Shown: positions 2,690 to 28,523 of the stretch, piece after piece
Layout: every line of letters starts with the position of its first letter
How positions within the stretch are numbered: position 1 is the first letter of the stretch
Assembly (NCBI GenBank): GCA_905178155.1
Contig: CAJINV010000040.1
Coordinates: forward strand, 4,970 to 33,492
DNA length: 28,523 bases
Direction: 5' to 3'
DNA from: Amoebophrya sp. A120
Lineage: Eukaryota; Protista; Dinoflagellata
Notes under the pieces: model-generated
Told to the model about the DNA's origin: nothing
The model's input: only the letters and a program-made list of their open reading frames with translations
Databases searched by the model: none
Position numbers and translations under genes: made by a program

Positions 2690-2758
2690 AAAAACGATGA
2701 TGTCCTACAGAAAACGATGATCTTGACACAGAAACGAGCAAAAACGATGATCTTGACA
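2690..2758. repeat. Short imperfect tandem repeat
   Basis: AAAACGATGAT(CTTGACA) occurs three times. Confidence 0.6.
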
Positions 2759-3076
2759 ATAATAGCAGTGATCGAAATAGAGGTGAGAACACACTGTTCA
2801 CAACAAAAGCAACACAACAAACGGTCCGCGATGTCGAGATGACAGCCGTGAGCACTATAGTATCTTCATTGGGATTTCTCGTACTTGTGGCAATTCAAGC
2901 AAAAAAAGTTCGCGAGGAAAGTTTGCAAAGTTTCGCTTTTTTTCTTTGTAGACAAATGAAAGTTTACTTCGGAGGTATCTCAGATGCTACAACTAGATCC
3001 ATGGAATTATCATTAACACCAACGCCCTACTGATGGCTGTCAACACCTGCGGGTATAGTGTAAAAAATGGCATAGA

Positions 3077-3447
3077 AATGCATCGACATTTGGTCCGTTC
3101 TTGCAGCGATGGAAACAACAGAAGATCAATATCTTCATCACCATTGCAGCACGCGGAAGCCGTGAGTGTACTTCTAAAATTCTCAGTACGAGAAAAAACT
3201 CAATCCATTATAGTAATCGAGTCGCATGTATTACAGGCTGGAGGCCTTCGGGTCTCTGGTTCAGGCCGGTACTCAAGGCTCGTGGGAATCATTATTTCTG
3301 ACTGAGAGTCTGAAGAAGAGCGGCAAGGAAAAAGCACAAAATAAACATGCGGAATTTGCGCATGACGACTTGCGACATGCGAATGTCGCAGTCCTGCACC
3401 GTGTCCTTCTCGAGGTCAGAAATCGAGTGAGTTCGAGACCGAAATAG
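3077..3447 (+). CDS. Possible 3' exons of a hypothetical plus-strand gene
   Basis: A GTGAGT...TTACAG intron (3162-3236) would join IDIWSVLAAMETTEDQYLHHHCSTRKP to the 3226-3447 ORF (LEAFGSLVQAG...RPK*). No start codon and no homology recognised. Confidence 0.2.
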
Positions 3448-10100: not shown

Positions 10101-11159
10101 CGGTACGCCTCTTCTGCCGCTTCGTAGTCTGCCTTCTGCGCTGGCGTCTCGAGCATGTGGTTCCGGCGGCCGGGGAAGATCCAGTTTTTTCCTGCGAGAT
10201 GCTCCTGCTCATCGTTAGCCTGAAGGTCATGCGACGAGGATTCCTGCTTTGCAGTGTTGACGTCGGGACCCAGCTTCGGCGACCTGTCGCCGATGTCCAC
10301 TCTCCTCTTTTTGGTTTTGCTTGAAATAGGAGGATTTGCTGAAGCTTGATCTACTTGGTCGTCGGTGTTCGTTTTTCGCGGGCTGATGTGCACGGGCGAA
10401 CTTGTCGATGATAATGAGCCTTGGTTCCCTCGTCTCGTGGTGTCATTCATCAGCACCTGTAGTGAATCTTAGAGTTAGGTTGCAGAAGAGCAGTTCCGTC
10501 ATCGTCATTGAAATGTAGAGCATCAAAAGCGTCTCGAACGAAAATTCAAATATTTGATACCACGAGGTAGTCAAAAAGCATATAATTTTTCAATAAAAGT
10601 GGACCAAGATAGGCGTGCTTCGAAAAAAGTGCGAATCTCGGAAGTTAGATACTTACGACACAACCCACTGATGTACCTGGTGTAGCCCTCGTTGGTTGTC
10701 TGTTTCTTGCAACGTTAGCCGACTCCGGGTCTCCGTATGGATGGCCGTCTGCCAGACTGCTTTTCGCTTTGCGCGCGGTACTGGAATCAACGGCGAGGCG
10801 TCTTCTTCATCACGAGCTGCTGAACTCTTAGCGGCTTCAGTTTCTGTGCCAGCTGCAGGCCAGTCCCAGTCTTCTCCACCCGAGGAAGACGAGCAGGCCG
10901 GTCCTATCACGCCCCTGGCGCGCTTCAGAAATTGCGGCGAGGTTGCCGCTGCCGCCTTTGCGGTGTTTAGTCTCCGCTTCTTGTTGCTCCGACGTCCAAG
11001 CGACCCAGCAGCGGAGAAGGTCGACGCCCGCCTTGTATCTGGTCGTAGAGAGCGAGCGGAGGGAGAGGTTTGTTGATTTCCCGACCCACTGCTTGCTTCT
11101 GCTGCGGTGGCGGTAGAGCGCTTGGATCGCTCCTTAGCATAAGCAAACTCGTGGTTCAT
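4154..11159 (-). CDS. SBNO: Strawberry notch (SBNO) family SF2 helicase-like protein, multi-exon, ~1550 aa in the full model
   Basis: Motifs: QLETI, GFLLGEGTGCGKGR (Walker A), FDECHAAKN, VLYVSAT, LAY|MARLGAW, SRRLSLEGVQF, LALQSTGEA, LPENALDHILNSLGGPEKVAEISGR, AGSTGVSLHA, LELPWS, QQIGRVHRSGQ, plus a C-terminal GTRRQLTATLLCGSFL...VQLRRF...YGILLP block. Exon model (boundaries may shift a few nt): 10677-11159 (tentative), 9188-10456, 7245-9050, 7012-7074, 6526-6827, 6199-6245, 5855-5929, 5341-5639, then tentative 5013-5073, 4767-4831, 4489-4589, 4154-4238. Total 4656 nt, open throughout. The core 6526-10456 is well supported; both ends are less certain. Confidence 0.88.
4244..4488. mobile_element. 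Introner-like inverted-repeat element, family A
   Basis: Ends read inward TATTCAGTACAAATATGTCTGG and TATGCACTGCAAATAGGGGCCTGG. Perfect 5-nt direct repeat TTTTG at 4239-4243 and 4489-4493. Confidence 0.75.
4837..5012. mobile_element. Degenerate introner-like element
   Basis: Ends TATGAAGGGTTGCAAAAAACCGACA and TATCGTCTTGCAAATGCCAACA, with irregular spacing. Removing element plus 5 nt joins DPYWK-R-KDARNVVERHPFMQLK in frame. Confidence 0.4.
5079..5340. mobile_element. Introner-like inverted-repeat element
   Basis: Ends TATGCCAGCAAAAT and TATCTCAGCAAAAT. Removing element plus 5 nt joins ORF 5314-5610 to the frame of ORF 4933-5208. Confidence 0.6.
5645..5854. mobile_element. Introner-like inverted-repeat element, family A
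   Basis: Ends TATGGAATGCAAAAATGTCTGG and TATCAAATGCAAATAGCATGTCTGG. Perfect direct repeat CGTCA at 5640-5644 and 5855-5859. Removal gives VVLARD-GSKWTIARGSVPGRW in frame. Confidence 0.85.
5935..6198. mobile_element. Introner-like inverted-repeat element, family A
   Basis: Ends TATGAGATGTAAATATGTCTGGAGCTGG and TATCCACTGCAAGTATGTCTGCGTCTGG. Direct repeats CGTTA/CGTGA. Removal gives VEAIH-AALDLIGDKK in frame. Confidence 0.8.
6251..6525. mobile_element. Introner-like inverted-repeat element, family A
   Basis: Ends TATGCATTGCAAATGTGTCTGGGTCTGG and TATCAAATGCAAGTATGTCGAGGTCTGG. Direct repeats CGGGT/CGAGT. Removal gives KVEGTR-AAKRLLESG in frame. Confidence 0.85.
6833..7011. mobile_element. Introner-like inverted-repeat element, family B
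   Basis: Ends TATTGTATGAAAAAGTACCGCTCT and TATGCATTGCAAAAGTACCGCACT. Direct repeats TTCTC/TTCTT. Removal gives ADQEE-RIYWSSS, in frame with ORF 6462-6758. Confidence 0.8.
7079..7243. mobile_element. Introner-like inverted-repeat element, family B; also readable as GT-AG intron 7075-7244
   Basis: Ends TATCCTGTGCAAAAGCCTCGCATT and TATGAATTGCAAAAGTTTCGCACT. Removing 170 nt gives SALLP-PALFEDRKSDLKE in frame. Confidence 0.75.
9056..9187. mobile_element. Introner-like inverted-repeat element, family B; non-canonical intron ~9051-9187
   Basis: Ends TATGCATTGCAAAACAAAGCATGATCGCACT and TATTCTGCGCAAAAGTATGAGCGTCGCACT. Removing element plus 5 nt (137 nt) restores the SBNO motif ELAY-MARLGAW between the 440-aa and 632-aa ORFs. 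Confidence 0.85.
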
Positions 11160-12384: not shown

Positions 12385-13500
12385 CTACATTTCGACGTCT
12401 TCCTCCGCCGCCTCGTCTTCCAAAAAGAACAGGTCCGCGCGGACGCAATCAACGTCCGGGTGCTTCTGGAGGTACCGACAGATTTTGCCTGCGAGGTCCG
12501 AGATTTCATTATGCAGGTTGATCCCTTTATTACGCAGCCCAGCCGCGTACCCGGGAATCACCGCTTCGCGGACGACCTGGACCATGGCCTTTCACTATCC
12601 TGAGCAAGAACGTCCCCACCCCAAAGTTGTCATGCAAATTGCGTTGGCAAGCTGTGAACAGGATAAGGACATGGATTTGTAATGCGGCTGCCACAGCGAC
12701 GGCTTCACTGCACTACCATCCAAAGCGGAATCTGTCACGTATGACTTCCAAAATTTGTGGATTTGCAGCGCAGACTGCTCATCTTGACGCTAGAGAGAAA
12801 ACGCTCTTGCAAATGATAGCCATGCGCCTTTTCTCACCTCGTCCTTGCCCGCGATTACTGTGCGGTCGACGTCGAGACGGACCGTCTTACAGGCATCCAT
12901 GCCGACTATGTCGGCCTTCTTGGTTGCGAACGTTTCCCACGTCGGGCCGGAGTCACCGGGTTCCTCCTGGTCGTTTTCCGCGGCGACGCCGCTTGCTGCT
13001 TCTGCGGGAGAAGCGGGTCGCACGTGGTGTTCACGAAAATCAATGACGAGATAGCTGATGCGCGGGTCACGTTTCAAGGCGTCCGTGGCGCGGGAGGCGA
13101 GGGCCTCCACCGCGGCCCACTCCTCCGGCTCCTTGAAAGCACCAAACTTCTCGCGGACCTGCTGCAGGACCTTGTAAAAGTCCACCGTGCGACGCCCCCG
13201 TTTGTCGGTTTTCTTCAGATCGCTGACGGGTCCTATAACGCAGCGCCTACGGGCAGCGGCCAGCCTTTTGCGCTTGCGAATCTCTTCCCTCCGCTCTTCT
13301 TTTTCGTCTAGATCCGCAAGGGTGTCGTAGATGTGATCGACAATATCTGCAGAGCACGAACTCGCCGGCGACGGCGGCGCGGAGGAACAGGATGGAGTTA
13401 CTCCACCGACACGGCGGAGCAGCCGGTCGGTACTGGTAGAGCGATCAAGGTCGCTAGAAAGATCCAGGTCAGAGTCGGTAGAAAATGAGTCACCCGCCAT
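12385..13500 (-). CDS. Hypothetical protein, 2 exons (12819-13500, 12385-12590), ~295 aa
   Basis: The 236-aa and 66-aa ORFs join in frame (VRKGAW-Q-AMVQVVREAV) when the element below is removed. Ser/Asp-rich N-terminus and a basic NLS-like RKRKR. No family recognised. Confidence 0.7.
12596..12818. mobile_element. Introner-like inverted-repeat element
   Basis: Ends TATCCTGAGCAAGAACGT and TATCATTTGCAAGAGCGT. Element plus 5 nt is 228 nt; its removal deletes the stop at 12790 and keeps frame. Confidence 0.75.
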
Positions 13501-14060: not shown

Positions 14061-14708
14061 TCACCACGTCGCATCACAATCCGCTGCCCAGCGCGCTTTA
14101 TCCTCGTCGGTCATATCTGTGAAGTCTGTCGTTGGTGAACAAATGCCGGCATACGTGGGTGGCGCAGAACAGCCCGCTACAGTCTGCGACCACTCCTGAG
14201 GGCACGGAGCTGCAAATTCGGTAGATTTGCTACTGCACGGCCATGCAGCACCGCATCTCCACGCCCAGTCGACTTTGTTGGCTAGGTCCATGGTCGAAAA
14301 GTTGCGCTCGCCACAGAAGCCTGAGTAGCTAGATCCAGGAACGCACACTGCACCGGCTGAATCAAAACCAACAGGGCAACCGCTGAAATTCATTGGACAG
14401 CCTCCTGCAAAGAGTTGCTTTCTCAGCGCAATGTGTACCGCGATAAAGCTGTCTTTTGTTAGCGCACTCAGAGCCATTTCGCTGGAGACCTGCTCGGCGA
14501 GGGATGCCGTTCCGGCTGCTATTGCCGATGCTTCATTGGCAGAGGCGTCTCCGACAGATTGCTTGTACGCGGAAGAAGATGTTGTGGCGCTTAGGATCTG
14601 GCTGAGCGTTTGGCTAGCTCCGGCAGCACTGCCAGGAAAAATAGGGTCGGCAGTAACGATACGCGATGTTATTGTGCCCAGGACCACCATCGCCGCGCCG
14701 CGCCGCAT
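14061..14708 (-). CDS. Secreted CPW-WPC domain protein (2 domains), ~215 aa
   Basis: ATG at 14708 after a T-tract; signal-like MRRGAAMVVLGTITSRIVTA. Domains CPMNFSGCPVGF...C...YSGFC...KVDWAWRCGAAWPC and APCPQEW...C.APPTYAGIC...KARWAADCDATW. Confidence 0.9.
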   Translation of the reverse strand: MRRGAAMVVLGTITSRIVTADPIFPGSAAGASQTLSQILSATTSSSAYKQSVGDASANEASAIAAGTASLAEQVSSEMALSALTKDSFIAVHIALRKQLFAGGCPMNFSGCPVGFDSAGAVCVPGSSYSGFCGERNFSTMDLANKVDWAWRCGAAWPCSSKSTEFAAPCPQEWSQTVAGCSAPPTYAGICSPTTDFTDMTDEDKARWAADCDATW

Positions 14709-14738
14709 TTTGTTCCAATGTATGGATTGCACCAGTTG

Positions 14739-14752
14739 AAAAAAAAAAAAAA
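14739..14752 (-). promoter_or_regulatory. T-tract upstream of ATG (example of a motif present before almost every array gene)
   Basis: T-runs or T-rich tracts lie roughly 15-50 nt before the ATGs at 14708, 15908, 16735, 17484, 18416, 19347, 19933, 21374, 23343, 24653, 25306 and 27672. Candidate trans-splice polypyrimidine tract or dinoflagellate TTTT-type core promoter. Confidence 0.55.
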
Positions 14753-15098
14753 CTGTTAATTCCGAACCTAGTGCAGCAATTTCGGGTTTTAGTGCTGAAG
14801 CAATTTGGCGGACCCACAAATCACAACGATTTTTGGCAGCAAAATTTGGTGCGAGTGCTCGCTCCTCTCAAATTCTGTCGAGAGCTGATGTTCCGAAATA
14901 TGGTTGAAAGACTCTGTAGCAGCGCGGCTGAGAGTATGCAGCTGCGATGTCGCACGTGCAGTGACGCAGATTTATTGCACTCTATTCAATGGATCGCGCC
15001 GCCAACCGTGGTCATTTTCACCAAGCTTGTTCCACATTTAGCTGTTTCTTGCAATGTTGCCTTTGGAGAGGCATCTCAACTTGCTACATGAAGTACGC

Positions 15099-15908
15099 CT
15101 ACATCCAGTACGCTCCGCAACGATGCTCCCACAGTGCGAGCATCTTGGCGTTGAAGCCAGTGAAATTTTGCACGTCGGTACACGGTCCAGCATAAGATGG
15201 AGAGGGTTTGCACTTATGTATTCCCGCTGGAGCAAATCCGACGGGGCATGTAGCCGAGTAGGAACGGACGCCCGAAGCACATGGCCAGGAAAATCCACAC
15301 TGTTCCTCTGCACGCATTTTTGCTTCGAGGTTCATTGCTTGAAACGAATAGGGTCCTTTGCTGCAGCTTCCTCTGTAGGTGCTGGCCATGCAGGTTCCGT
15401 TTTGCGCCACTGAGAAGCCTATTGGACAGCTTCTGTAGTCCTTGGGACAGCTCCTTATCAAACCGCTCGGCGTAGCTAAGTGTGGCCTTGGTGTGTGCGA
15501 CATCCCGATCATCATTTCCCGAAACCCGGACACTTCGCTATTCTGTGGCTCTGGCCCGGAAGGAATAGCCGAGAGGGATGAAAATAGTCCGTCCGCAGAA
15601 GAGGCTCTCCGCAAAAAACTGGTTTCATGCCATGTCGAGCGCGGACTTGTGCCCTGGCTGTAGCTTTGTTTCACCAGGATGCTTCTGCCAGAATGTACGG
15701 TGCCAGCATCCGTATGCGCTTCCCGAAGTTCAGCAGGGAATGGCGGGAACGTCCGTGATGGAATCAATTTAGAGAACAATCCGCTTTGCTGCGTTGGCGC
15801 TGCTGTGATTGGCGTAGTTGCGAGGCGGATGGCTGGCAAACGCACGGCTGCAACGGCTGTGATCCCCGGGAGTACGAGGTGCGGCAAGGTAGCGAGTCTG
15901 TGAGCCAT
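15099..15908 (-). CDS. Secreted CPW-WPC domain protein (2 domains), 269 aa
   Basis: Hydrophobic N-terminus; TSFLRR. Domains CPKDYRSCPIGF...YRGSC...KMRAEEQCGFSWPC and RSYSATCPVGF...YAGPC...WEHRCGAYW. Confidence 0.9.
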   Translation of the reverse strand: MAHRLATLPHLVLPGITAVAAVRLPAIRLATTPITAAPTQQSGLFSKLIPSRTFPPFPAELREAHTDAGTVHSGRSILVKQSYSQGTSPRSTWHETSFLRRASSADGLFSSLSAIPSGPEPQNSEVSGFREMMIGMSHTPRPHLATPSGLIRSCPKDYRSCPIGFSVAQNGTCMASTYRGSCSKGPYSFQAMNLEAKMRAEEQCGFSWPCASGVRSYSATCPVGFAPAGIHKCKPSPSYAGPCTDVQNFTGFNAKMLALWEHRCGAYWM

Positions 15909-16267
15909 TGTGATGTGCGTCGACTTGGCAGAAGAGCACTTTAATTAAACTCAAAAAAAAAACTACAACGGGAGATTGTTCTAGGATTTTTTGAGTGATC
16001 CGCACAGCTTTTATGGCAAAGGCCGATGTCTTTTCCGGTACCTTTCAGGTGGCACGCAGCACTGTCATAGGATTTTCATTTCAATCACGGCAATTTGCGT
16101 TTTCACTGACCAAATGCTTTATGACAACGATTGCAGAACAGCTGAGTTGAGAAAACGTTAGCACCTGTAGGCGATTTCCGCGCATTGTGGTCAAACCAGA
16201 AGAGCCACGCGTTTTTTATCAAAAACAAAAATCGTTTGAGGGATCAAAAGCTAGGGCATCTTGAAGC

Positions 16268-16735
16268 TTACGCACACGGAAAGGTGGCTCCACACTTCCA
16301 AGCAAAGTCTGTTTTCTGTGCGTTGGTCATACCAGAAAACGACCGCGGGCCGCAGTACCCTGTATAGGATGCCGTCGGGTAGCAGGTTCCATCAGACAAA
16401 GTGAAGCCGATGGGGCATCCAGACATATCCATGGGACAGCCACCAGCGTAAAGCTGTTTCCGCACCGCCACGTGCGCAGCAACATACGCGTCCTTCTTCA
16501 GGCTTTCCAACGCTAGAGCTGACGAAACCTCTTCTGTCAGGGCGGCCGTTCCGGCCGCGATGGCAGCAGCTTCATTGACCGACGCGTTGCCGATGGACTG
16601 CTTGTATGCCGAACTGGAGCTGCCGGCCGACATAATGCTAGCTAGACTACTGGCTGCAGCTGCAGCAGAGCCCGGGAAAATTGGATCAGCCGACGCGATA
16701 GCGGCCACCGCCGAGAGAACAGCAAGACCCAACAT
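16268..16735 (-). CDS. Secreted CPW-WPC domain protein (1 domain), ~155 aa; paralogue of 14061-14708
   Basis: Signal MLGLAVLSAVAAIASA. ADPIFPGSAA...SSSAYKQS.G.AS.NEA.AIAAGTA is shared with the paralogue; ends KTDFAWKCGATFPCA. Confidence 0.9.
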   Translation of the reverse strand: MLGLAVLSAVAAIASADPIFPGSAAAAASSLASIMSAGSSSSAYKQSIGNASVNEAAAIAAGTAALTEEVSSALALESLKKDAYVAAHVAVRKQLYAGGCPMDMSGCPIGFTLSDGTCYPTASYTGYCGPRSFSGMTNAQKTDFAWKCGATFPCA

Positions 16736-17148
16736 ATTTTTTTGGCGCAATCAAAAAAAACAAAACCAACTAAGTGACTTGATATGAGTGAAGTATAATT
16801 GCGCAATAGGCCATACGTGTGTAAAATACCAAGTTTGATTGCAGACGGCATTGGCTTTGTGCTATGCGTTCTGATGTCTTACTTGCCATCCCTCCAAGAC
16901 ACACGAGCGCGACCCCTATGTCGTCGACAAGCGAAGGCATGCAGTGCAGCAGTGGACAAGTAGTCGACACCGAGATTTGCCACGAAATACTTCTGAACAG
17001 AACTGGAGGAAGGACTTTTTCATGTGCACTGACAAGAAGTGGCTTTTCATGCCTGCATACTGTGGCTCGCAATTCTTTATCAGCGTTCTTTGCAATACTC
17101 CAATCTCAAAGGGCGAGAACAAAGACTTTACGACCCGGCATTGGTTCC

Positions 17149-17484
17149 TCAGGCGTGCAGGTGCAGCTGCACGATTGGCGACTGCGTTTTGCGCTCTGGC
17201 AGGTAGCCCCCCGACGCTCCCATGATACGCGAGACCAAACCACGCAAGAGGGCTCCTTTGCGGGCTTGCAAGAAGGAGCTTGATTGACCGGTCGTGTAGT
17301 CTACTACGGATCCTCCTGCTGCCGCAGCGGAAGCGGCCCCATTAGAGGACGCGGCCGCCTGATATGCTAGTCCTGCGGACCTGTACGCCTTGGCGGCTGC
17401 GGAAATGTCAGAAAGATCGCTCTCACGCTGAGCCGAGACAAAAACTCCCATCAGGGCGCTCAGCACGACGGCAAGGCGAAACAT
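17149..17484 (-). CDS. Small secreted Ala-rich protein, ~111 aa
   Basis: Signal MFRLAVVLSALMGVFVSA; SSFLQA; ends in beta-strand-like SPIVQLHLHA. Confidence 0.8.
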   Translation of the reverse strand: MFRLAVVLSALMGVFVSAQRESDLSDISAAAKAYRSAGLAYQAAASSNGAASAAAAGGSVVDYTTGQSSSFLQARKGALLRGLVSRIMGASGGYLPERKTQSPIVQLHLHA

Positions 17485-17795
17485 TTTATTTTTGAAAAAG
17501 CTGGGAGAAAAAAATAACTGGAGCTGTAGTGGCTTGGGTGGAAACACATACTACTTTAGTGGCAGCCTGCGTATTTTTCTGGTAGTTCTTGAAAAAGTTG
17601 AAACCGCCACGACGTCACTCCGAGCAAAAGATAGCTGCTGGCACGTCTCTCACCACCACACATTCCGCTCAACAGCACGCAGTCGAGAACGAACAGACAG
17701 AGTCACCAGCCTGTAGACGCACTAGATAACGGGGCTTCGCATTACTTTCTATATGGCGAGAATCTTCGAATCAAAACAAGGTCCATTTTAATATT

Positions 17796-18416
17796 TTAAC
17801 CCAAGGCCGAGGCGATCATACCATTTAACGCCTTGACAAATTGGATCTGCATGTCCATGATCTTGCCTTGCATGGCCACCTCTGAGGCGTCGCGGGAGGA
17901 CTCAGTGGCCTGCAAAAGATCCACGGTGGATGCCCACGGAATGTCAGACGCCTTGACTTTGACGCCGATGGAGCCGGACCCTTTTTGGAGGAAGCTGGCA
18001 TGGAGCGCACTCTTCAACTCCCCGATCACGATTTTGGCCAAGGCGCCAAACTCTGCAGTGGCCTGTGCAATGGTCTTCGATTCCAAATCTGCGCGAACAT
18101 TTTCAAAAGCAGCAACACGGCCAGCAGACGCTCCTGATTCCGGGGCGTTCATCACGCGAATGAAAACTGGCGCGCCTTGGAGAAACGAAGAATGATGCAC
18201 AACAGCGTCAATCTCCGCTTTAGCAGATGCCAGCGCTGCAGTCATGGCTTTCTGGATTCCATTCATCCCGGATGCTTCCATAGCAGACTCTGCCTTTCCG
18301 TAGGACGCGAAGCCGCTCCCGGCATCCACCGGAGGCGCTAAGGCTACCTGGATAAGCGGCTCACTGTCAGCAGCAACGCTGCCAATCAAGCACGCTGTGA
18401 GAATTTTCCCATACAT
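17796..18416 (-). CDS. Secreted protein with three strand+helix modules; resembles apicomplexan blood-stage antigen 41-3-like proteins, 206 aa
   Basis: Signal MYGKILTACLIGSVAA; EPLIQVALAPP...SSFLQ...EFGALAKIVIGEL...ASFLQ...VDLLQATESSRDASE. The family resemblance is from memory and unverified. Confidence 0.85.
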   Translation of the reverse strand: MYGKILTACLIGSVAADSEPLIQVALAPPVDAGSGFASYGKAESAMEASGMNGIQKAMTAALASAKAEIDAVVHHSSFLQGAPVFIRVMNAPESGASAGRVAAFENVRADLESKTIAQATAEFGALAKIVIGELKSALHASFLQKGSGSIGVKVKASDIPWASTVDLLQATESSRDASEVAMQGKIMDMQIQFVKALNGMIASALG

Positions 18417-18690
18417 TTTCCTGAACTGTGAGAGCAGAAAAAAAATCTACTGAGAGGAAGATGTTTATGTCTGTAAAATGCATAAAATGCACGTGTGCAA
18501 GATTTTGTAAGCTACAGTTGATTGCTCTAGTTGCAGGTTTGTTTGAACGAGTCTTGGTCTCTCAGTAGTGAACAGAACACGAAGTGGTCGCGGGACTCAT
18601 TGCTGGCTGGATCAGAAATACTTTGGACTCAAGCAGATGCGACTCAACAACATTTAACAAACACTAGCACATTCTCAACAGGTCGATGTC

Positions 18691-19347
18691 CTAGTGCGAG
18701 AGCGCTGCGGCACCGATGGCATTCAAAGCCTTCACCAGCTGCATTTCCTTTGCAAGGATCGTGGTTCTGAGCCTTGTTTCACCCGAGTCGCGACGAGCCT
18801 CCATGTCACCCAACAAGGCCGACACAGTCTTGTACGATGGGTCTGCGCCGACGCGCACGTTGATTTCGCGGGAAAAGCGCAAAAAACTTTTGCGTCCGCG
18901 TAATTGCTTGTCAAACTCCGCGATCACAACTTTGGCAACCTCTGAAAATTCCTGCTTGGCTGACGAGACCAGAGCACCCATTGCCGCAGAGCGTTTGCCC
19001 TCTAACGCCTTGACCCCGGCAACACCCGCGGACTCATCTGAGGTGGCGCCTTCAATACGAACGGAAATGACCGGCTCCGCAATGTTCGCAAAAGACGCAC
19101 GGCCCATGGCTTTGGAAATGGTGTTCCCGAGCGTTGCCGAGGCTTGGGCCAGGGTCGACTTGTACGCGGCGTCGATTTCAGCCAGGGCTGCGTGTTCAGC
19201 TGCGAGGCGGCTTGACTCTGCGGCAGCAATAGCACTTGACACCGCTGGATAAGGGGCGGAAGGGGATGCTAAACTCAATTCCACCACCGGCTTGCCAGCG
19301 CGGACCAGCACGGCACAGGCACTGAGCGTCGATAGCAGCTTTGCCAT
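18691..19347 (-). CDS. Secreted paralogue of 17796-18416, ~218 aa
   Basis: Signal MAKLLSTLSACAVLVRA. KPVVELSLASP, EFSEVAKVVIAEF, KSFLR, LLGDMEARRDSGE and MQLVKALN are collinear with the neighbour. Confidence 0.85.
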   Translation of the reverse strand: MAKLLSTLSACAVLVRAGKPVVELSLASPSAPYPAVSSAIAAAESSRLAAEHAALAEIDAAYKSTLAQASATLGNTISKAMGRASFANIAEPVISVRIEGATSDESAGVAGVKALEGKRSAAMGALVSSAKQEFSEVAKVVIAEFDKQLRGRKSFLRFSREINVRVGADPSYKTVSALLGDMEARRDSGETRLRTTILAKEMQLVKALNAIGAAALSH

Positions 19348-19648
19348 ACTTGATTTTGGGAAAGACAAGTAGATACTGATACACAAAAAAACAGAATCCT
19401 GCGTGAGGCAGAAGGACAGACGGGTTGATGGTACGGGAAATCCACGTTGCCTTTTGCGAGAATCTCCGAAATCATGCGCCAATGCGCAGGGGGGAAGATC
19501 TCTCACCACGCTCAGACACGAAACACAAACACGAAACGCCGACGCGATCCAAATCTGGGCGGAGCCAAAGCTTTTTCAATTTTTGCTTTTCAATGGAGGA
19601 AATCAAATTCTGAAGAACTACAGTCCGAGTCAGGTCATTCTCAATCCC

Positions 19649-19933
19649 CTAGCCCAAAAGGTCACGCGCGGTTGCCTCATTCATTTTTTCCATGCTGATC
19701 ATGGACTGCAGTGCGCTGTTGGCATGAGCCCGGCGCCGAGCTAAGAGTGCCAAGGTTGCTGCCTCAGATCGGCGCATCTCAGCAGAGCGCCGCGCCGCGA
19801 TTGCATCTGGAATGGCGCTTTCCAACGCAACGTTGATCACTTCAACAGGTCCAGCAGAGCCGTGGGTAAGAATGTCCTTGTATCCGAAGGCGCACCCGAT
19901 CAGGGCAAAGAACAAGGCCGCAACGCGCATCAT
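19649..19933 (-). CDS. Small secreted protein, ~94 aa, single strand+helix module
   Basis: Signal MMRVAALFFALIGCAFG; PVEVINVALES followed by an Ala/Arg-rich helix. Confidence 0.8.
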   Translation of the reverse strand: MMRVAALFFALIGCAFGYKDILTHGSAGPVEVINVALESAIPDAIAARRSAEMRRSEAATLALLARRRAHANSALQSMISMEKMNEATARDLLG

Positions 19934-20240
19934 TTGTTGTAGCTTTCCCGTTTGCAAAAAAATCCTGAAGATTCACTTCAGTCACAATAACGAGAGCAAC
20001 ATGACTCCAATCAAAATATGCGTTTTGGGTAGGCGACGAGCGATCTCTCCCGCTTGTCACTTGCTTTTTGTCCAGTCCGTTAGCGAGGAAGAAGCGACTC
20101 AGAGCAGAACAGAGAGCAGAAAAGGCCTGCAAGGCTCAGTAAAAGCGAAGTTTTTGAAGGAAATATTCACTTGAATGCGAGACATCCACTGCTATTCTCT
20201 TGAAATGCCACCCGGGATGCTGTCACGGGATTGTGAGTTC

Positions 20241-21374
20241 TTATGCACTAGGCACCTTGGCGGAGCCAGATCCAAAGTACGGCGAGTTGACAATGGAGTC
20301 CGAGCCCGTGCTGTAAATGTCAAATCCAGATGCCGTATTTTCCAAAGCCGCGAGGGAGGCCGGCGCGACCGGGCACTCTGCGGGGACGGAAGTCGATTCT
20401 TCAAAGCTGCTGTACTGCGGCGGCAGGTTGTCACTCCGCAAATACAGAGCCATGGTGCACATTGGCGGGGCAGAGACGGTGCTGCAGGTGTCAGCAATGT
20501 CTGTGATCCAAAAACCTGGGCACGCGACCAAAGTGGCGATGCAGCTTGTGAAGCAGAGTGGCAGGCGACCGACCGGAGTTGGCTCGTTGCGGGCCATTGG
20601 AGTGGAGCACCGCGGAAAAATGGCGCCGCATTGCATAGACATGTAGGTCTTGAAGCACAGAGAATACGCCGCGCTACCCGTTTTGCCAACACGGTCCTTG
20701 TACAATGCCGGAAACGAAGCAATGGTGCCATCCAACTGGGCATCAGTCACGTCAGCAGTGACAAAGTCGGCAGCAGTGATTGGGTACAACACGGAGCCGA
20801 CACAGTTGTGGCCAGTAACCATTGGCATGCAGGGAAGCGGTTGGTTCATCCACACGGGGGGCGGCACCATTGGGGGAACTATCTGCAGCACGGTGGACAT
20901 TGCAGCCTGAATCAGGCCAGCACCGGTGGCAAGACCATTCATAGCGAGCATCTGAGGCATACCGCCTGCAGCTCCCGCGGCTCCAGATTTGCTTGCTAAC
21001 TCTGCGACCATCTTGCTGACGTCAAATCCGAAGAGACGCGACACTACCCCTCCCGGGAAAGCTGAAACTCCCTTGACAGCCACCGCAGCTGGGGCGATCC
21101 CATAGTCGCAGTGCGGGGTAGACGAGCCGGTTTTGTAGTCCTGCAAAAAGGAGACAGCGGTGTCCAACATGTTCAGGTGCGTTTGGTAAGAATTCACATC
21201 AAACTCCTTGGCCATTTTGTCATAGACCTGCAAAAACGCCTGCTCCATTTCTGGAGACTGCTCTTTGAACAAGGCGATATACGCATCAGACCCGTGCAAG
21301 TTTTTGTCTGCCATCTCTTGGCTGGTCATCAGTGCGGACGCACCGATAACGCAGAGAGACGCGACCCGCAACAT
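20241..21374 (-). CDS. Secreted Cys-rich protein with Frizzled-CRD-like domain, ~377 aa
   Basis: Signal MLRVASLCVIGASA; AFLQ and SFLQ. PPPVWMNQPLPCMPMVTGHNC...CFKTYMSMQCGAIFPRC...RLPLCFTSCIATLVAC has FZ-type cysteine spacing. Confidence 0.88.
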   Translation of the reverse strand: MLRVASLCVIGASALMTSQEMADKNLHGSDAYIALFKEQSPEMEQAFLQVYDKMAKEFDVNSYQTHLNMLDTAVSFLQDYKTGSSTPHCDYGIAPAAVAVKGVSAFPGGVVSRLFGFDVSKMVAELASKSGAAGAAGGMPQMLAMNGLATGAGLIQAAMSTVLQIVPPMVPPPVWMNQPLPCMPMVTGHNCVGSVLYPITAADFVTADVTDAQLDGTIASFPALYKDRVGKTGSAAYSLCFKTYMSMQCGAIFPRCSTPMARNEPTPVGRLPLCFTSCIATLVACPGFWITDIADTCSTVSAPPMCTMALYLRSDNLPPQYSSFEESTSVPAECPVAPASLAALENTASGFDIYSTGSDSIVNSPYFGSGSAKVPSA

Positions 21375-21684
21375 GATTTGATTCTTTGTAACAAAGAAAA
21401 AAGTAGCTAAATGCGCGTTAAATGAAGAGGTAGGTTCATGACCGCTAGGAAATGCAATTGTATACATATACACAAGCCGACGAAGAAATTTGCTTCGCTC
21501 ATTGTCTCTCCACACGAATCCGCGGTTGTGCAACGAAGAACATCATGAAATGTAGAAAAAAACAAATATCACGCAAGAAAGCGGGAAGACCTAGAACGCG
21601 AGAGAGCGGTGCTTGAGCTGTTTACTTAATTGAAAACAAACGCAAAGGCCTTGGACGCGTTTTTGGAAGTCCTGATTAAGTGAG

Positions 21685-22235
21685 TTACGCACACGGGAAC
21701 TCTGCGCCAACACTCTCCGCAACGGCTTGTTTTTCAATAGCCGCCAAACCAGAAAAGGAGACACTGCTTCCAGACGCGGAGACGCAGGCATCACCCGACG
21801 GGGCCCATCCCGAAGGACAACCAGCGTAGTTGCGGGCACAGGTCACCGCCGAAAAACTTACACCTTCTGCAACAGCAGCCGCCTGGAGTGCGTCGGATAG
21901 GGTAGCCTTGATCATCATGGCCGATTCACTGGGGTGGGCCGCCTTCAAAGAAGATTCTAGACCTGAAGTGAAGAAGTAAATTTTGACTGTAAGAGTTTTG
22001 CACGGTTAATAAAGTCATCATATGTAGTCTGAAAGTTATAAACACCTCTAAGCAGTTGGAATCTTGTACCTGCCAGCGCTGGAGCGCGCAAAAACGACGC
22101 ACGATCAGCGATAACGTTCACCACGAGAACGTCGCCTTTGTTCACATCAGTGAAGATTTCTTTAGGCAGGTCGAATGGGACAGTTGCCAAGCAGGATGCG
22201 ATCCCGCAGGCGAATGCCACGACGAACGACTTCAT
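21685..22235 (-). CDS. Secreted protein with degenerate C-terminal CPW-WPC domain; 2 exons (22070-22235, 21685-21962), 147 aa
   Basis: GT-AG intron 21963-22069 (G|GTACAA...TTCACTTCAG|GT) joins ASFLRAPALAG to LESSLKAAH in frame. Domain CARNYAGCPSGW...C...EKQAVAESVGAEFPCA. Confidence 0.85.
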
Positions 22236-22548
22236 TGTGTGGGCTAGTTGTATTTGAAAGAAACGCAGCTACAGCTTTGGTAATTGCAGATGCAATGGTG
22301 ATGATGCTCGAGTTGCGTCCTCACGGTTGTACAAGCACGCCAGTTTGCTGCCGCTTTTGTTTTTGTTCATCTACACTCACCAAACAATGTGAACACACGA
22401 CTCATTGGTTTTGCAGAAAAAGAGAGCGAGTGAGCTCCGGACGTAAGCGCATTCACAGGGAATTTGATTGTATTCAGTTCAGACATGTCTGAATTGCTGT
22501 GCCTTTCCCGAGAGTCCTGCGCCCGCGAGACAAGACTGAGGAAGCGGT

Positions 22549-23343
22549 TTAGTGGTAGAGCGAACCCGCCAGGGAGTCCGCCGCCATAGCTCCAGCCTTC
22601 AACTGTGCGATCTCCTCTTCAGCCCCATAAACACGACTTGGCGACGGCAGCACGATGTTTGTGTGGCCATAGGCGCCGGTTGCAGAGTCACTAGACTGGA
22701 ACGAGACCGGCATGTTGGTCAGGAACGTGATCAAAGAACCGGCCATGTCCCTGGTGGCATCTGGGGTACTTTCCTTCTGTGCGAGATTTTTGACTTTGAA
22801 CAGGAGGGGCTGCATGGCAACGCGAGCATTGGGCAGAGAAGCAAGATCCAACAATCCTGCGACACCATGCTGTGCAGAATAGCCACCAGCGTCAACGAGC
22901 GACCCGTAGTAGCTGACTGCATCTTTGAAAACAGATCCATCTGCACCCTCACGCTGGAGATCGGATAGCGGCGTGCGCAGAAAGGATTTGTGTGCCGCGC
23001 GTTCTAACATCTGCACTTCCTGTTGCTCGACGCCAGCCAGTGCAGTTGCAGCGGCAGCACGATCAGCTGCGAGCGACGCAGACGCGGTCTCACCTACGTG
23101 CAAGTTCAACACGGGACGCTGCAAGAAGCTGTACTTTTTAGCCGCAGCGCTCATCACTGCCTCCACGCCGGCGTTGCGCAGCACTGGTTGGGCCAGCGCA
23201 GGCGCAATTTTTTGCTGAAAATCCGCGGAATTCGAGCTGATTCCAGCAGAGAGCGCCTCACCCAATTGTTCACCGACCGCGAAAGACGGCATAGCCGCCT
23301 CAGCAACGGCAGCGAAAGTGCAGGCGACGAAAAGTTTTGACAT
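22549..23343 (-). CDS. Secreted protein with two SFL motifs and a helical (ARM-like?) C-terminal region, ~264 aa
   Basis: Signal MSKLFVACTFAAVAEA; YSFLQRPVLNLHVGE; KSFLRT; C-terminal AGSLITFLTNMPV...GAYGHTNIVLPSPSRVY. Confidence 0.85.
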   Translation of the reverse strand: MSKLFVACTFAAVAEAAMPSFAVGEQLGEALSAGISSNSADFQQKIAPALAQPVLRNAGVEAVMSAAAKKYSFLQRPVLNLHVGETASASLAADRAAAATALAGVEQQEVQMLERAAHKSFLRTPLSDLQREGADGSVFKDAVSYYGSLVDAGGYSAQHGVAGLLDLASLPNARVAMQPLLFKVKNLAQKESTPDATRDMAGSLITFLTNMPVSFQSSDSATGAYGHTNIVLPSPSRVYGAEEEIAQLKAGAMAADSLAGSLYH

Positions 23344-23647
23344 CTTCCTGGCGATGATTCCACGAAAAAAAACACGACGCCAAGGACTTGTGCTACGGCA
23401 AGTCAAGCAACATTTCTCTTTGATTTCTCTTTGATTACGCGGGCTGATTCTGTCTCTTTGATTACGAGTATTGCATTTTTTGGGTGGCCGCTCGTTGTCA
23501 CGACACATGAGCACGAATTTAGGAACACATATGAACGTGAGACGCTGGAAAATACATTGTGGAAAATGGGAATCAAAAAACTATCAGGATTTCATCAGTG
23601 TATTGTCGCGTCCGATTTTTTGACACGTCACCGGTTTGGCATCCTGC

Positions 23648-24653
23648 CTATGGCGGGCTGGCCACTAACGGGCTGCCAATAACCTTGCATTTGCTGGTGA
23701 CGGCCTGTTTTGTGTAAAGGGAAGGAAATCATGGGAAAGCCTCCTGATCCGGCGCGACGCAATTAATCACAAAAGAAAAGCTACACGGATCCCCCCGTAC
23801 TAGTCTATAGAAAAAATAGCTGAATAGTGTACCTTTGTGGCCTCCCAAACCGAATCATTGATGCCCCAGACCTTTCCCATCAACGAGTGGACCGGTCCGC
23901 AAAACGGAGCGAATCTGAGCAAGCACGTGCTGGCGGTGTAAACGTCGATGCAGGCACACAGAATTTTGGTCGCAACACCCAATACATGGATTGGGAGGTT
24001 GATGGCTTGGTAGATGGCCAGGGTCGCGACACGACCGAAGTTGCAGCGGTTGCCCAGTGCCTCCACCAGCTTGCAGGACTTGGCGTCAAGGTATGCCAAA
24101 CAAAAATACCATTTCTGTCCGATTCTCAAACCGCATGTAAGCTCTAACTAAGCTCTCCGTCACTCCGTGAATACACCTGAGTTTCAGTACTGAATGCAAG
24201 AATTACATTGTTGTCTGGGCATTTTGGTAGTTTTGTTTATGATAAAAAGCAGGGCGCGTCCATCATTGGAACAGCAGACGACAAGGTGCTGCGCTCTTTC
24301 AAAAAGGCGCTGTGGGTTGCCTGGAACTCAGCTAGCGCCGTGGTCGGGTCCTCATGCTCCACAGCGGCTTGGAATTCCTTCATTTTGTTGAAAGTGTCAG
24401 CGGTTTGTTCCTGAAGTGCAGACAGGACCGTTTTGCCATCCTTCTGTGCAGTCGACATCACGGAATCCCAGTACTTCACGCATTCCGCACCACAGTCCTT
24501 GCTCAACACCTCGCGGACCTCATTCAGCTTATCCAGCGGCACCTCAGTGTGCTGTGCAGGGAGGGACAGCAGACGGTTCCCCGCGGTGATCCGCTGCGAC
24601 ATGGACAGAGCGCTGGCGCCCGCCACAACCGTCAAGGATACAGCAACTTTCAT
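23648..24653 (-). CDS. Secreted Cys-rich protein, 3 exons (24245-24653, 23833-24086, 23648-23704), ~239 aa
   Basis: Signal MKVAVSLTVVAGASA. The introner-like intron ~24087-24244 and GT-AG intron 23705-23832 give DAPCF(Y/D)AKSCKLVEALGNRCNFGR...LCAC...CLLRFAPFC...WEATK-AVTSKCKVIGSP. Confidence 0.78.
24092..24244. mobile_element. Introner-like inverted-repeat element
   Basis: Ends TATGCCAAACAAAAATACCA and TATCATAAACAAAACTACCA. Removing element plus 5 nt joins ORF 24237-24653 to the frame of ORF 23800-24129. Confidence 0.82.
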
Positions 24654-24919
24654 CTTAGTGTCTCAGTTTGGAAAAAAAACGCACTATTTGGGAGACGAAT
24701 GCGTTGGAAAGACTCAATGATTGACTTGGAGGGTTTGGCCATTTGATTTTGACAAAAGACCGGAAGAGCAAAAGCCATTTTGGTGCGGTCGCGCCCAGAC
24801 GAACACATCATGACGACATAAGGCATGAAGGACCAGTTTGGGTCTCTGTGTAGGTTAGTTACTAACTTTTATCAGGAGACTGTTATTGTCACTTGTTTAC
24901 ATTGTTGGAGTGCCACTGT

Positions 24920-25306
24920 TTACACGCGCAAGCTAGCGAGACCCGCAGAAAAGGCTTGCATATCATAAGCAGCTTGGCTAGAGTCAGCGACGGAGGAAGC
25001 CGACGCAGTAAACTCAGGGCGTTTCTCCACGATGTTGACCTTCGCCGGAGAGTCGGTCCGCATTGGCTGCGTCAAAAACAAAGCCTCCTTGACCATGCCT
25101 GGAGATCCGGCCCACGCAGCAGCCCCAGTTTTAAGGAAGGAAGTTTTGCCCATGACTTGGGAGTGCATGAACGCCTGAATGCGAGCCTCCAATGCAGCAA
25201 TGTCTTTGGCGCTTGCTGTCAGGTGTCCCGGGCCAGCAACTTTGATGGACTCTGCAGTGCAGCAGGCAAAAAAAGCCGCAACCGCGATAAAGAGTGTACG
25301 CAGCAT
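24920..25306 (-). CDS. Small secreted protein, ~128 aa
   Basis: Signal MLRTLFIAVAAFFACCTA; TSFLKT; PAKVNIVEKRP followed by a helix. Confidence 0.82.
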   Translation of the reverse strand: MLRTLFIAVAAFFACCTAESIKVAGPGHLTASAKDIAALEARIQAFMHSQVMGKTSFLKTGAAAWAGSPGMVKEALFLTQPMRTDSPAKVNIVEKRPEFTASASSVADSSQAAYDMQAFSAGLASLRV

Positions 25307-25654
25307 TCTTCGCAAGAAGTTCTAGTTTCAGGTTCTCTATTCAAAAAAAGTGCTACAAGATTAAGAGGAGACCGTGCAATGTTAGTCAAGCAGACAGTGT
25401 TGTAGTAAAACGTTAGGCGACGGCAGCTTTGGCATCAGGTTTGAGTGCACAGCATTCACTCCGCTCTGGACGTATCCGAGTCCTAGCCTGTCTCTCAAGG
25501 CAGCGTCGAACGAACAGAATGATTGAGCAATGACGTTCGAGGCTACACAGCCCAGCGAAGAATCTGAGGAGTGGGGTTCTCTATTCCAACTTAGAAACGA
25601 GTGCACTAGAAGAGTCACGCTTAGCTGCGGTAATCAGGCGACACAGGTTGCTGC

Positions 25655-26212
25655 TTAGTACGCGACATCGCAGAAGATCTGCGCTTCTTGCTTCTCCGCG
25701 ACGCTCAGGTCAGACGGCAGGCCTCTGGTGCAGAAACCCGAGTAGCTTCCGGTAGGATTGCACGTTCCCGCGGTCTCCACCCATCCAGACGGGCAGGTAG
25801 CGGTCGGTCCAGTGAGTCCAGAGAGCTTAGTCGCGGCCGCCGCAACCTGTTGGGCAATTGTGGACAAATCACCGCTGGACAGTCCGGTCAGCTTCAGAAA
25901 GCTCGCAGCACCCGTGGAGTAAGGCAAAGTAAACTTGCCGACGGTCGTGGGCGACGACCCCATTGCGGCTTTCACCGCTGCTGTGAGCTGCTTCTCCTCC
26001 GGCGATGACGGAGCGGCAGCAGCAAACGCTTCAGCGCCCGCGAGTAAATCTCCGGTCACCCCTCCCAACTTCGCATCCGACGGCATGGTGGCAGCAGTCA
26101 ATCCAGCTGCACCTCCTCCAGACAGCGAGCCGATAAGCCCCGACGCTGCCGACGCGCTGTCCCTCACTTTGAGGGCGGAGGCGGCTCCAAAAAGGCAGAA
26201 AACAACGCGCAT
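25655..26212 (-). CDS. Secreted Ala/Gly/Ser-rich protein with C-terminal CPW-WPC-like domain, 185 aa
   Basis: Signal MRVVFCLFGAASA; ASFLKL; TCPSGW...C.PTGSYSGFC...EKQEAQIFCDVAY. Confidence 0.85.
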   Translation of the reverse strand: MRVVFCLFGAASALKVRDSASAASGLIGSLSGGGAAGLTAATMPSDAKLGGVTGDLLAGAEAFAAAAPSSPEEKQLTAAVKAAMGSSPTTVGKFTLPYSTGAASFLKLTGLSSGDLSTIAQQVAAAATKLSGLTGPTATCPSGWVETAGTCNPTGSYSGFCTRGLPSDLSVAEKQEAQIFCDVAY

Positions 26213-26553: not shown

Positions 26554-27672
26554 TTAGCGCAGCTGTGACTGCAAGCTGGAAATGGCCTGCATCTCACCCT
26601 TGACAGCTGCGATATCTGCACCGGAGACGAAGGTCGGAGTCTCAATGTCCACGTTCAGCACCGGAGCGGAGCGCGGCACATCATCACCACTCAGGAAGGA
26701 GCTGTGGGACATTTCAGCTTCCAAGCTAGCGAGGCGCTTGGCCGCGTACGCAAATCCGTCAGCCGTCAGGCGTGCCATATCTACCTTCTTGCCCTTTGAA
26801 GCGGAGTCAACCATCACGTGCACAGTCGGCTCACGGGAAGGAGAGGCCTTCAAGAAGGACGCGCCCAAAGCAGCGGAGCGAATGGCTTGGAAGGATTTTT
26901 CAATGCTCTGCTCGAGCGACGTCTTGATGGATTGGTACTCACTTTCCAGGACCGAGGCCGGGGCACCTGCTTCAAAGTACACGTCAGTCTTGCCCTTTTG
27001 CAGAAAGGACGCGGCTTTCAACGCGGCCAACTCCTGGGTGAACCCTGCATGTGGCACGTCATAGTGGATGTCGATCACAGACGGGAGCGAGGCCTGCATG
27101 GTGGACTGAATGGCAACTGGCGGCACGAAAGGCTCCAGAAAGCTGGACTTGCCGCGCACGATCCGGCCGATCTTCGCGATCTCTGCAGAGAGCATAGCCT
27201 GCTTGAGGGATGCGTCCGCGGCAGCTTCGGCCGACGACTTTGCAGATTCAGTTTTGAAAATAGACGAGACGGCAGCGTCAACCGACGCCTTGTCTTCAGC
27301 AGGAGCGTGCAACACGAATTCATGATCCGCAGCTGGAGCGAGCGACGAATAACCCTGGAGAAACGAGTGATGCGCGCCAACGATGCTGTGAACCTTGGCA
27401 ATCTCTGCGTTCAGAAGACGTTGCTTGTCCGCTAGCCCCGCCGCTTCCAGACCCTTTTCATGGGCCTTCTCAACAGCCATCAGCGCATCAATGTCAGCGT
27501 TTGCCTCGGCAGATGGCATGGAGGGGGGCATCAGGTTCAAAGTGTAAGGAGTCGCGTCGGCGGCCTTACCCGCAATGCCCGATGCCACACCCGGCGGCAC
27601 CATTTCCAGCGGGTCAGGGAACATCCGCGCACCATGAGCGCACAGGGAAGTCGCTGCAAGCACACGAAACAT
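26554..27672 (-). CDS. Secreted polyprotein-like protein with five SFL motifs and internal repeats, ~372 aa
   Basis: Signal MFRVLAATSLCAHGA; SFLQ, SFLE, SFLQ, SFLK, SFLS. Modules 1 and 2 are homologous (KQRLLNAEIAKVHSIV vs KQAMLSAEIAKIGRIV). Confidence 0.88.
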   Translation of the reverse strand: MFRVLAATSLCAHGARMFPDPLEMVPPGVASGIAGKAADATPYTLNLMPPSMPSAEANADIDALMAVEKAHEKGLEAAGLADKQRLLNAEIAKVHSIVGAHHSFLQGYSSLAPAADHEFVLHAPAEDKASVDAAVSSIFKTESAKSSAEAAADASLKQAMLSAEIAKIGRIVRGKSSFLEPFVPPVAIQSTMQASLPSVIDIHYDVPHAGFTQELAALKAASFLQKGKTDVYFEAGAPASVLESEYQSIKTSLEQSIEKSFQAIRSAALGASFLKASPSREPTVHVMVDSASKGKKVDMARLTADGFAYAAKRLASLEAEMSHSSFLSGDDVPRSAPVLNVDIETPTFVSGADIAAVKGEMQAISSLQSQLR

Positions 27673-27957: not shown

Positions 27958-28523
27958 TCAGCATCCTCCCGGACAGGACGCAGCCGCCGAGGCGTAGGTC
28001 GGGTGCGGCCGGGGGGCATGCTCCATACCCAACATCATTTCCCGGAAGGCAGCCAAGCCCGTGGTGTCCGGCTGCGGCGGGACCGGGAGACTTCCCATGG
28101 CGCCCAGAATCGCATCGCCTTTGCGCAGAAAACTGGAGGGAGTGAGCGCCGCCAGAAGGGCCTGCAGGTGTTTTTGAGTACAGAGTGAGTATGTTATTTT
28201 TCCCGAGCAGAAAAATGTGTGAACAAACGAGCGACGAGAAAATGCAGATTCACAAAGAAAGAGTATTATACTTTATCAGAACGCAACTCCTGAGCCGCCG
28301 CAGCGATACGATTGTCCAGCGCCAAGCCGCTTTCCATGGACGACATGGCCGAAGCCGCGTCAAAGGCCGGGAAGTGGTACCGGACGTTCACTTCTGGCAG
28401 GCTGTGGGCAATTTCACCAGTGAATTCTGCTTTTTCAGCCGGGAGGCCGTAATTTCCGGGGGCCGTCGGCGAGTTAAACGCCGTGAAGCCAGCGACGAGC
28501 GTCGCGCACGATGCAAAAACAGT
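27958..28523 (-). CDS. 5'-truncated secreted protein, 2 exons (28272-28523+, 27958-28161); absent from the ORF track
   Basis: Open frame TVFASCATLVAG...PEVNVRYHFP...RSDK, then GT-AG intron 28162-28271, then ALLAALTPSSFLRKG...FREMMLGMEHAPRPH...SCPGGC*. Homologous to FREMMIGMSHTPRPH in 15099-15908. Confidence 0.8.

Follow-up and report, generated by a model that had tools for sequence, protein, structure and literature searches.

The stretch of DNA analysed here, hereafter the window, comprises 28,523 nucleotides (nt) of the dinoflagellate Amoebophrya sp. A120 and carries on its minus strand, from position 14061 to its end (28523), a run of at least 15 consecutive genes with an intergenic spacing of 266-413 nt (g01 to g15, Table 1). 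Its products, predicted to be secreted and soluble, are five proteins of the CPW-WPC family, two that are homologous to the Plasmodium antigen 41-3, one Frizzled-like (Fz-like) homologue of PBANKA_0620300 and seven without a named family. We put the probability at about 0.55 that these products are the content of a single internal secretory compartment related to the malaria crystalloid, in which they assemble together, and the cluster is likely to be a core, independent of LAP proteins, that is held in common with the Plasmodium crystalloid complex. A preliminary description of this DNA had delimited the cluster at 14061 to 26212, which recognized a real cluster and ended it too early, as two further members, g14 and g15, follow.

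Regarding the CPW-WPC proteins, five had been announced and the domain is found in all of them: four exceed the cut-off of Pfam PF09717 (23 bits), and g09 reaches 21.9 bits (E 3.4e-4), below that cut-off, on its second exon, which splicing joins to an upstream exon of signal type. NCBIfam TIGR01492 matches all five, two of them above its own cut-off. Hydrophobic 10-residue windows of 2.07-2.69, measured by hydropathy, lie inside the first 30 residues of these proteins; near the N-terminus, the peak value is at least 1.98 in 14 of the 15 cluster proteins and 1.50 in g14, and no transmembrane segment was seen in the 15 beyond the N-terminal stretch. The five flanking open reading frames (ORFs) score from -0.32 to 1.98, the highest value not being at a true N-terminus. 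The genes g01 and g03 are close paralogues (DNA repeat D2, 73% over 90 nt), and the N-terminal part of g02 is paralogous to g15 (E 2e-13). Compared to the family as known from PF09717 and TIGR01492, the same domain recurs in the five window proteins and in four genes of each of the metagenomic cassettes presented below; however, the family in dinoflagellates is expanded and clustered, with one to three domains per protein.

The proposed 41-3-like pair also proved to be homologous to its Plasmodium namesake. A profile built from 14 sequences around g05 and g06 matches Plasmodium antigen 41-3 at E 1.7e-16 and Vitrella CEM32289 at E 1.9e-23; it retrieves 323 representatives at E <=0.001, 150 of which were listed, and ten proteins, eight from that list, were examined individually. 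The AlphaFold model (g06; 120 sequences; predicted local distance difference test, pLDDT, 78) consists of three long helices with low-confidence linkers between them, and the three modules are mutually homologous (HHalign probability 92-97%). Plasmodium 41-3 has the same three-module layout with SFL-Q/E linkers, two such sites being present; the Amoebophrya proteins differ in their length (206-218 against 375 amino acids, aa), in being two adjacent paralogues and in the fusion of the family to other cluster modules in some organisms. Foldseek returned nothing at E 0.001 for this model, searches of PDB sequences gave nothing below E 0.1, and the ESM Atlas yielded nothing for either g06 or the domain of g11. 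One protein of the family (P0204, Theileria orientalis UKJ87894.2) is labelled as a tRNA isopentenyltransferase, yet is a 41-3 homologue at residues 90-363, likely representing two merged gene models.

The Cys-rich protein g08 has homologues in Plasmodium, Besnoitia and Cyclospora at 36-44% identity (E 1e-56 to 1e-75; E 1e-59 to 1e-66 for the Plasmodium proteins). The signal peptide of the P. yoelii match is identical at 19 of 21 residues to that published for PBANKA_0620300 (Table S1, PMC7487766), and therefore the Plasmodium gene is PBANKA_0620300; masses of 65.1 and 63.1 kDa compare with 63.4 kDa. Outside the CPW-WPC family, apicomplexan homologues, whose absence would have spoken against the preliminary description, thus exist for both 41-3 and g08. 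Three weak lines, none of them decisive, suggest that g08 likely has a Frizzled-type cysteine-rich domain (CRD): Pfam Fz matches at E 0.079 (g08) and 0.012, both failing the cut-off, among window and locus proteins; a Foldseek search with the g08 model, headed by the MuSK CRD (E 1.7); and a structural comparison (VIA), headed by the Ror2/Nrk CRD (Z 5.6, root-mean-square deviation 3.9, 102 aligned residues), the model itself being poor (pLDDT 61). Besides the intronless versions, intron-rich versions of the Fz-like gene occur in L063, L064, L065/L066, L069/L070, L072, L074 and L076, with CPW-WPC-type exons near the gene in L063 and L074. Transcript-like contigs of this gene (L013, L020, L030 and L055) begin at the 5' end with what we take to be the dinoflagellate spliced leader.

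These three families converge in the malaria parasite. As described for P. berghei, the LAP3 interactome holds 50 proteins, including six CPW-WPC proteins, 41-3 (PBANKA_0606200) and PBANKA_0620300; all carry signal peptides there, several CPW-WPC proteins have been localized to the crystalloid, and PBANKA_0620300 is also present in the TPM2 interactome, its knockout significantly reducing the oocyst-to-sporozoite transition (PMC7487766). The suggested overlap with published crystalloid-associated proteins exists in this pull-down, including the membership of 41-3 in a LAP-associated complex that the preliminary description had stated. In comparison with this complex, the Amoebophrya proteins are shorter and their genes are clustered. 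The crystalloid is required for sporozoite formation, its function is unknown, and less than half of the pulled-down proteins are annotated (PMC7487766). That LAP and CPW-WPC proteins are older than Apicomplexa has already been published for chromerids (PMC11285972, PMC4501334).

The suggested likeness to the crystalloid and secreted-ookinete protein set holds for the three families and not for the PSOP proteins, as no homologue of PSOP13, 17 or 20 was verified among the window proteins: the g11 exon search gave three matches, all from Amoebophrya, among 64 candidates and no apicomplexan homologue. A resemblance of g11 to PSOP13 is possible, and an identification with it was not adopted. Accordingly, the claim of conserved Cys-rich secreted proteins stands for g08 with its apicomplexan homologues, whereas g11, for which none was found, is kept in dinoflagellate-type loci (99% identity to A120 at the exon, 58% to A25). 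The protein-set link is real, and stronger than the sequence by itself could tell; from the gene set, the homologies and the linkage, we infer the corresponding organelle in Amoebophrya.

In eukaryotes, unrelated genes are seldom kept together in conserved clusters. A metagenome scan with an Fz-like alignment found 76 loci, forming 67 groups once near-identical ones were merged, and another window family accompanies the Fz-like gene in 9 of the 16 locus groups whose flank measures 1 kb or more (tblastn E <=1e-3) and in 7 of 12 at 2 kb; the five flanking ORFs of the window match neither any metagenome locus by tblastn nor the hidden Markov models (HMMs) of the cassettes. Linkage is partial in L001, L002, L024, L062 and L063, homologues of g13 adjoining the Fz-like gene in the first two. 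In L002, which contains an internal inverted repeat of 336 bp, a g14 homologue (340-798, minus strand) lies on the opposite strand to the Fz-like gene, the sole inverted partner seen.

In L026, L031 and L042/L044, the same 12 intronless genes occur in identical cyclic order at 68, 61 and 60% guanine plus cytosine, respectively, g11 standing directly 5' of the Fz-like gene. L008 is a variant of this cassette, with an exact internal duplication of 1186 bp and what looks like two cassette genes fused into one that lacks the CPW-WPC domain (positions 892-3263 and 8036-9049), either a true variant or an assembly artefact. HMMs made from the cassettes only match 11 of the 15 window proteins at E <=1e-6, the matches of g04, g07, g12 and g15 being weak (1e-4 to 2e-3, in a 20-sequence search), and the gene order differs between cassettes and window. 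A terminal repeat of 141 nt marks L026, where the join is spanned by an intact CPW-WPC gene of 206 aa, giving a unit of 11,861 bp, and L042 and L044 represent a single unit of 11,759 bp, circularly permuted relative to each other; this circularly assembling unit of about 11.8 kb may be a tandem array or an episome.

Fz-like trees were computed with FastTree (94 rows) and, for 28 of these rows, with the quick mode of IQ-TREE. The window groups with A120, AT5.2 and A25 (support 98 in the Shimodaira-Hasegawa-like approximate likelihood-ratio test), and the cassette loci form one clade (100) within a distinct clade (100) to which a Polykrikos sequence also belongs; the four cassette groups therefore count as one lineage, which these sequences place distant from and outside Amoebophrya. 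As nearly the same gene set is found in such distant marine relatives, it is likely the parts list of one ancient secretory assembly; because three of its families are in the LAP3 interactome and conservation of the neighbourhood reaches well past this genome, nominating new components by neighbourhood, as first envisaged, is justified. The tandem arrays described for dinoflagellates generally repeat a single gene; the cassette unit differs from them in having about 12 different genes with seemingly one function. Like these arrays and the co-oriented blocks of Amoebophrya (PMC7789003), the genes of the cluster are unidirectional and closely spaced.

Further evidence comes from proteins in which the families are fused: 41-3 with CPW-WPC (P0163), 41-3 with g14-type and g10-type modules (P0178, P0182, P0233), and the g04 motif with the Fz-like protein (P0076, P0078). 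Such inter-family fusions, often joined via SFL-type linkers, support one destination of the products. The tripeptide SFL occurs 17 times in 11 of the 15 cluster proteins, compared to 1.10 times in shuffled sequences (maximum 5 in 2000 shuffles), an enrichment of about 15-fold, and is absent from the five flanking ORFs. Among 120 members of the 41-3 family, two linkers retain their Phe in 88% and 93% of the sequences, and both linkers fall in low-confidence inter-helix loops of the model. Considering that the plasmepsin X consensus is SFhE (PMC9804387), the SFL linkers between modules are putative cleavage sites, likely of a plasmepsin IX/X-type aspartic protease, as judged from the motif. Plasmepsin VI is on the LAP3 interactome list (PMC7487766), and its knockout blocks sporozoite development (PMC7487766, PMC2658712).

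A mode of action can be proposed in which all cluster products would enter the endoplasmic reticulum together. The 41-3-type and g14-type modules, each with a short hydrophobic segment, a proline and a helix of about 45 residues, would pack into a helical scaffold decorated by the disulphide-bonded CPW-WPC, Fz-like and g11 domains, the Fz-like domain possibly binding lipid, and a plasmepsin IX/X-type aspartic protease would cut the SFL linkers while the content condenses. Clustering, together with the repetition of the whole unit in one clade, would keep the subunits proportionate while they are briefly made in bulk, for which spore formation is the most plausible time.

More tentatively, and with doubt prevailing, a secretory assembly of the myzozoans may have given rise to the LAP-independent half of the malaria crystalloid. 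Dinoflagellates would still possess its complete parts list, in the form of an operon-like cassette of about 12 genes that some lineages amplify whole and whose products mature through SFL cutting. If this were true, the cassette would put names to structural subunits that the crystalloid inventory still lacks, and dinoflagellate spores would contain a homologous organelle so far overlooked. The published conclusion that dinoflagellates have lost LAP-linked processes (PMC11285972) would need revision. Moreover, the neighbourhood and the fusions are evidence independent of pull-downs that CPW-WPC proteins, 41-3 and PBANKA_0620300 belong together without LAPs; seven further families are nominated for search in apicomplexans, a candidate processing motif is suggested, and a multi-gene unit repeated whole would be an unusual organization for a dinoflagellate genome. 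No earlier description of the cluster or cassette was found in the literature searched, most subscription journals being outside its coverage, and neither CPW nor crystalloid is mentioned in the main text of the paper on the A25 and A120 genomes. Novelty appears to lie in the clustering of the families, in their combination without LAPs and in the repetition of the 12-gene unit, the families themselves being known or partly known.

Several observations weigh against a crystalloid-related compartment. The LCCL/LAP, PH-domain and NTH (transhydrogenase) genes for which a check of the flanks had been suggested were not found: Pfam detected no LCCL/LAP, PH-like, TPM or NTH domain in 28 window ORFs and 24 locus proteins, a negative that covers the cluster and cassettes only and that divergent PH-like domains can escape. 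LAPs are required for crystalloid biogenesis (PMC11285972, PMC7487766), and LAP orthologues have been reported absent from dinoflagellates, which have LAP-like proteins only, one with CPW-WPC domains (PMC11285972). In the available text of PMC7487766, 41-3 and PBANKA_0620300 are pull-down members with no localization, and the LAP3 pull-down also contains micronemal and surface proteins, foreign to the crystalloid. For seven window proteins, no apicomplexan homologue was shown, no reciprocal search having been made from a Plasmodium proteome. No tblastn partner was found in 7 of the 16 locus groups, which are mostly intron-split, two giving CPW-type matches by HMM, and the tree represents one gene family with paralogues, so that paralogy is possible. 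Enrichment of SFL is weaker in the cassettes (11 against 2.5 expected, the shuffle maximum also being 11), and the position that follows SF[LIV] is not fixed among the 41-3 proteins (Q 35, G 18, A 18, R 15, K 15, S 15, E 10), being mostly not E; the plasmepsin motif is therefore matched only in part.

Linkage within Amoebophrya carries similar reservations. In A25, three contigs each carry a 41-3-like and an Fz-like gene at a distance of five gene ranks, a further, fourth 41-3-like gene lies 40 ranks away, and g11-like and Fz-like genes are two ranks apart on a fourth contig; in A120, a 41-3-like gene and g11 are two ranks apart on a 19-kb contig, the sole Fz-like match being on a different scaffold from this pair. 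At least four loci are thus present in A25 and two copies of g11 in A120, on small contigs. The three A25 copies are near-identical duplicates, which also counts against the proposal, and therefore represent one event; because of this and of the high synteny between strains, the linkage in A25 and A120 is modest evidence. Co-oriented blocks hold 98% of Amoebophrya genes and 64% of homologues are syntenic (PMC7789003), another adverse point, and the co-orientation of the cluster genes was discarded as evidence of function because it is a genome-wide trait.

The absence of LAP, PH-like and NTH parts would also suit the alternative that survives best, although we find it unlikely: that the cluster is a functional unit whose products form an extruded or surface structure, such as a trichocyst, another extrusome, an adhesive or a cyst coat, and that Plasmodium reused the homologues in its crystalloid. 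Sporonts of Amoebophrya form trichocysts, and electron-dense bodies occur in this parasite as well (PMC9478091, PMC6176090), the available text of both papers having no passage on an ordered cluster of small vesicles, and one CPW-WPC protein has been reported on the ookinete surface (PMC7487766). The secreted precursors of ciliate trichocysts and dense-core granules (Paramecium TMP, Tetrahymena Grl), which are cut and condense into an ordered core, are a working analogy, and the helical modules with putative cleavage linkers recall the processed, crystallising Paramecium precursors (PMC2119969). However, no match to them was found in sequence or fold, and searches of Pfam, NCBIfam and PDB brought up no family of trichocyst matrix proteins; the cluster adds CPW-WPC and Fz-like domains, both rich in Cys, and the three named homologues converge in the crystalloid pull-down. 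The trichocyst proteins described for dinoflagellates are of the ciliate type. Among the text-readable supplements available from two Amoebophrya expression papers, none contains the gene tags or the terms CPW or 41-3.

The terminal repeat of L026, with a gene across the join, and the permuted L042 and L044, as well as the multiple loci on small contigs in A25 and A120, could indicate that the cassette is mobile or extrachromosomal, a circle of about 12 kb able to spread or multiply by itself, in which case the window would contain an integrated, rearranged copy. This is improbable, since a collapsed head-to-tail array assembles identically, the unit showed no gene for replication, an integrase or a transposase, and the window cluster has spliceosomal-type introns, ordinary flanks and a DNA word depth similar over cluster and flank, which is a poor measure of copy number. 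Still more improbable is a historical accident, namely local duplication of secreted genes kept by slow rearrangement without a common complex: local paralogues (g01/g03, g05/g06, g02/g15), the strong synteny retained in Amoebophrya genomes and the scattering of the Plasmodium genes over several chromosomes, judged by identifiers (PMC7487766), would fit it, but the cluster combines at least three unrelated folds, its membership stays while gene order changes between Amoebophrya and the cassettes, the flanking genes do not accompany it, the cassettes consist of cluster genes only, and the families are fused in other organisms. A viral origin is without support, because no relative was found among viral contigs.

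Table 1. The 15 genes of the cluster, in window positions (F, cassette family; L, metagenome locus; X, run)
Gene	Position	Strand	Product	Evidence
g01	14061..14708	-	CPW-WPC, two domains, 215 aa, hydrophobic N-terminus	Pfam 84 bits; F1 E 8e-36
g02	15099..15908	-	CPW-WPC, two domains, 269 aa	Pfam 85.2 bits; F11 E 7e-28
g03	16268..16735	-	CPW-WPC, one domain, 155 aa	Pfam 43.8 bits
g04	17149..17484	-	Small, predicted secreted, 111 aa, conserved C-terminal motif	F10, weak, E 1.4e-4; tblastn L026 7e-4
g05	17796..18416	-	41-3 homologue a, 206 aa, three helical modules, SFL linkers	91% identity to A120 protein
g06	18691..19347	-	41-3 homologue b, 218 aa	phmmer to P0261 E 1.6e-12 (8 chosen targets)
g07	19649..19933	-	Small, predicted secreted, 94 aa, no family	Hydrophobic N-terminus; weak cassette match E 2e-3
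g08	20241..21374	-	Cys-rich PBANKA_0620300 homologue, 377 aa, likely Frizzled-type cysteine-rich domain	Pfam Fz E 0.079
g09	21685..22235	-	CPW-WPC, 147 aa, one 107-nt GT-AG intron (~21963-22069)	Spliced contigs X4, X7; F2 E 1e-16
g10	22549..23343	-	Predicted secreted, 264 aa, no Pfam family, conserved in cassettes	tblastn 1e-16 L026, L031; F8 E 5e-22
g11	23648..24653	-	Cys-rich, predicted secreted, 239 aa, two introns	F3 E 2e-21; spliced joints
g11 introns	24088-24245; ~23704-23831		Non-canonical with terminal inverted repeat; GT-AG	
g12	24920..25306	-	Predicted secreted, 128 aa	Weakly like C-terminal part of F5, E 5e-4; tblastn L062 3e-4
g13	25655..26212	-	CPW-WPC, one divergent domain, 185 aa	Pfam 26.7 bits
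g14	26554..27672	-	Repeated helical modules, 372 aa, four SFL sites	F12 E 7e-14; F6 E 7e-6; L002 6e-36
g15	27958..28523	-	Spliced, 5' end beyond window, related to g02 N-terminal part	Joint 28160/28271; L062 6e-6

Four splice joints, seen in RNA-like contigs of runs X4, X6 and X7 (RNA status of the runs guessed by software), complete the genes g09, g11 and g15; no spliced-leader ends were seen on the contigs covering the window. The non-canonical intron of g11, confirmed in this way, is of the introner type reported in Amoebophrya (PMC7789003). A run of 6-14 T precedes 11 of 14 cluster genes, 11-44 nt 5' of the start codon and inside the final 55 nt; it was ruled out as a cluster-specific signal, as it also precedes the flanking ORF at 12790-13500, and may be a general trans-splicing or initiation signal.

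Upstream of the cluster in window coordinates, a Strawberry-notch-like helicase (7239-10468, minus strand; Pfam AAA_34 and Helicase_C_4) is spread over two frames, probably due to a non-canonical intron at about 9060-9190 with inverted-repeat ends, identified by eye and without a spliced contig. A high-copy repeat at 12595-12690, between the ORFs 12385-12591 and 12790-13500, is covered by many loose-ended DNA contigs (word depth 6632, run X1) and may be an introner. Finally, the regions 1-2400 and 4244-6527 contain no long ORF and hold degenerate direct repeats of 28-83 nt, spaced by about 300, 500 and 1060 nt, possibly decayed repeats or mobile elements.

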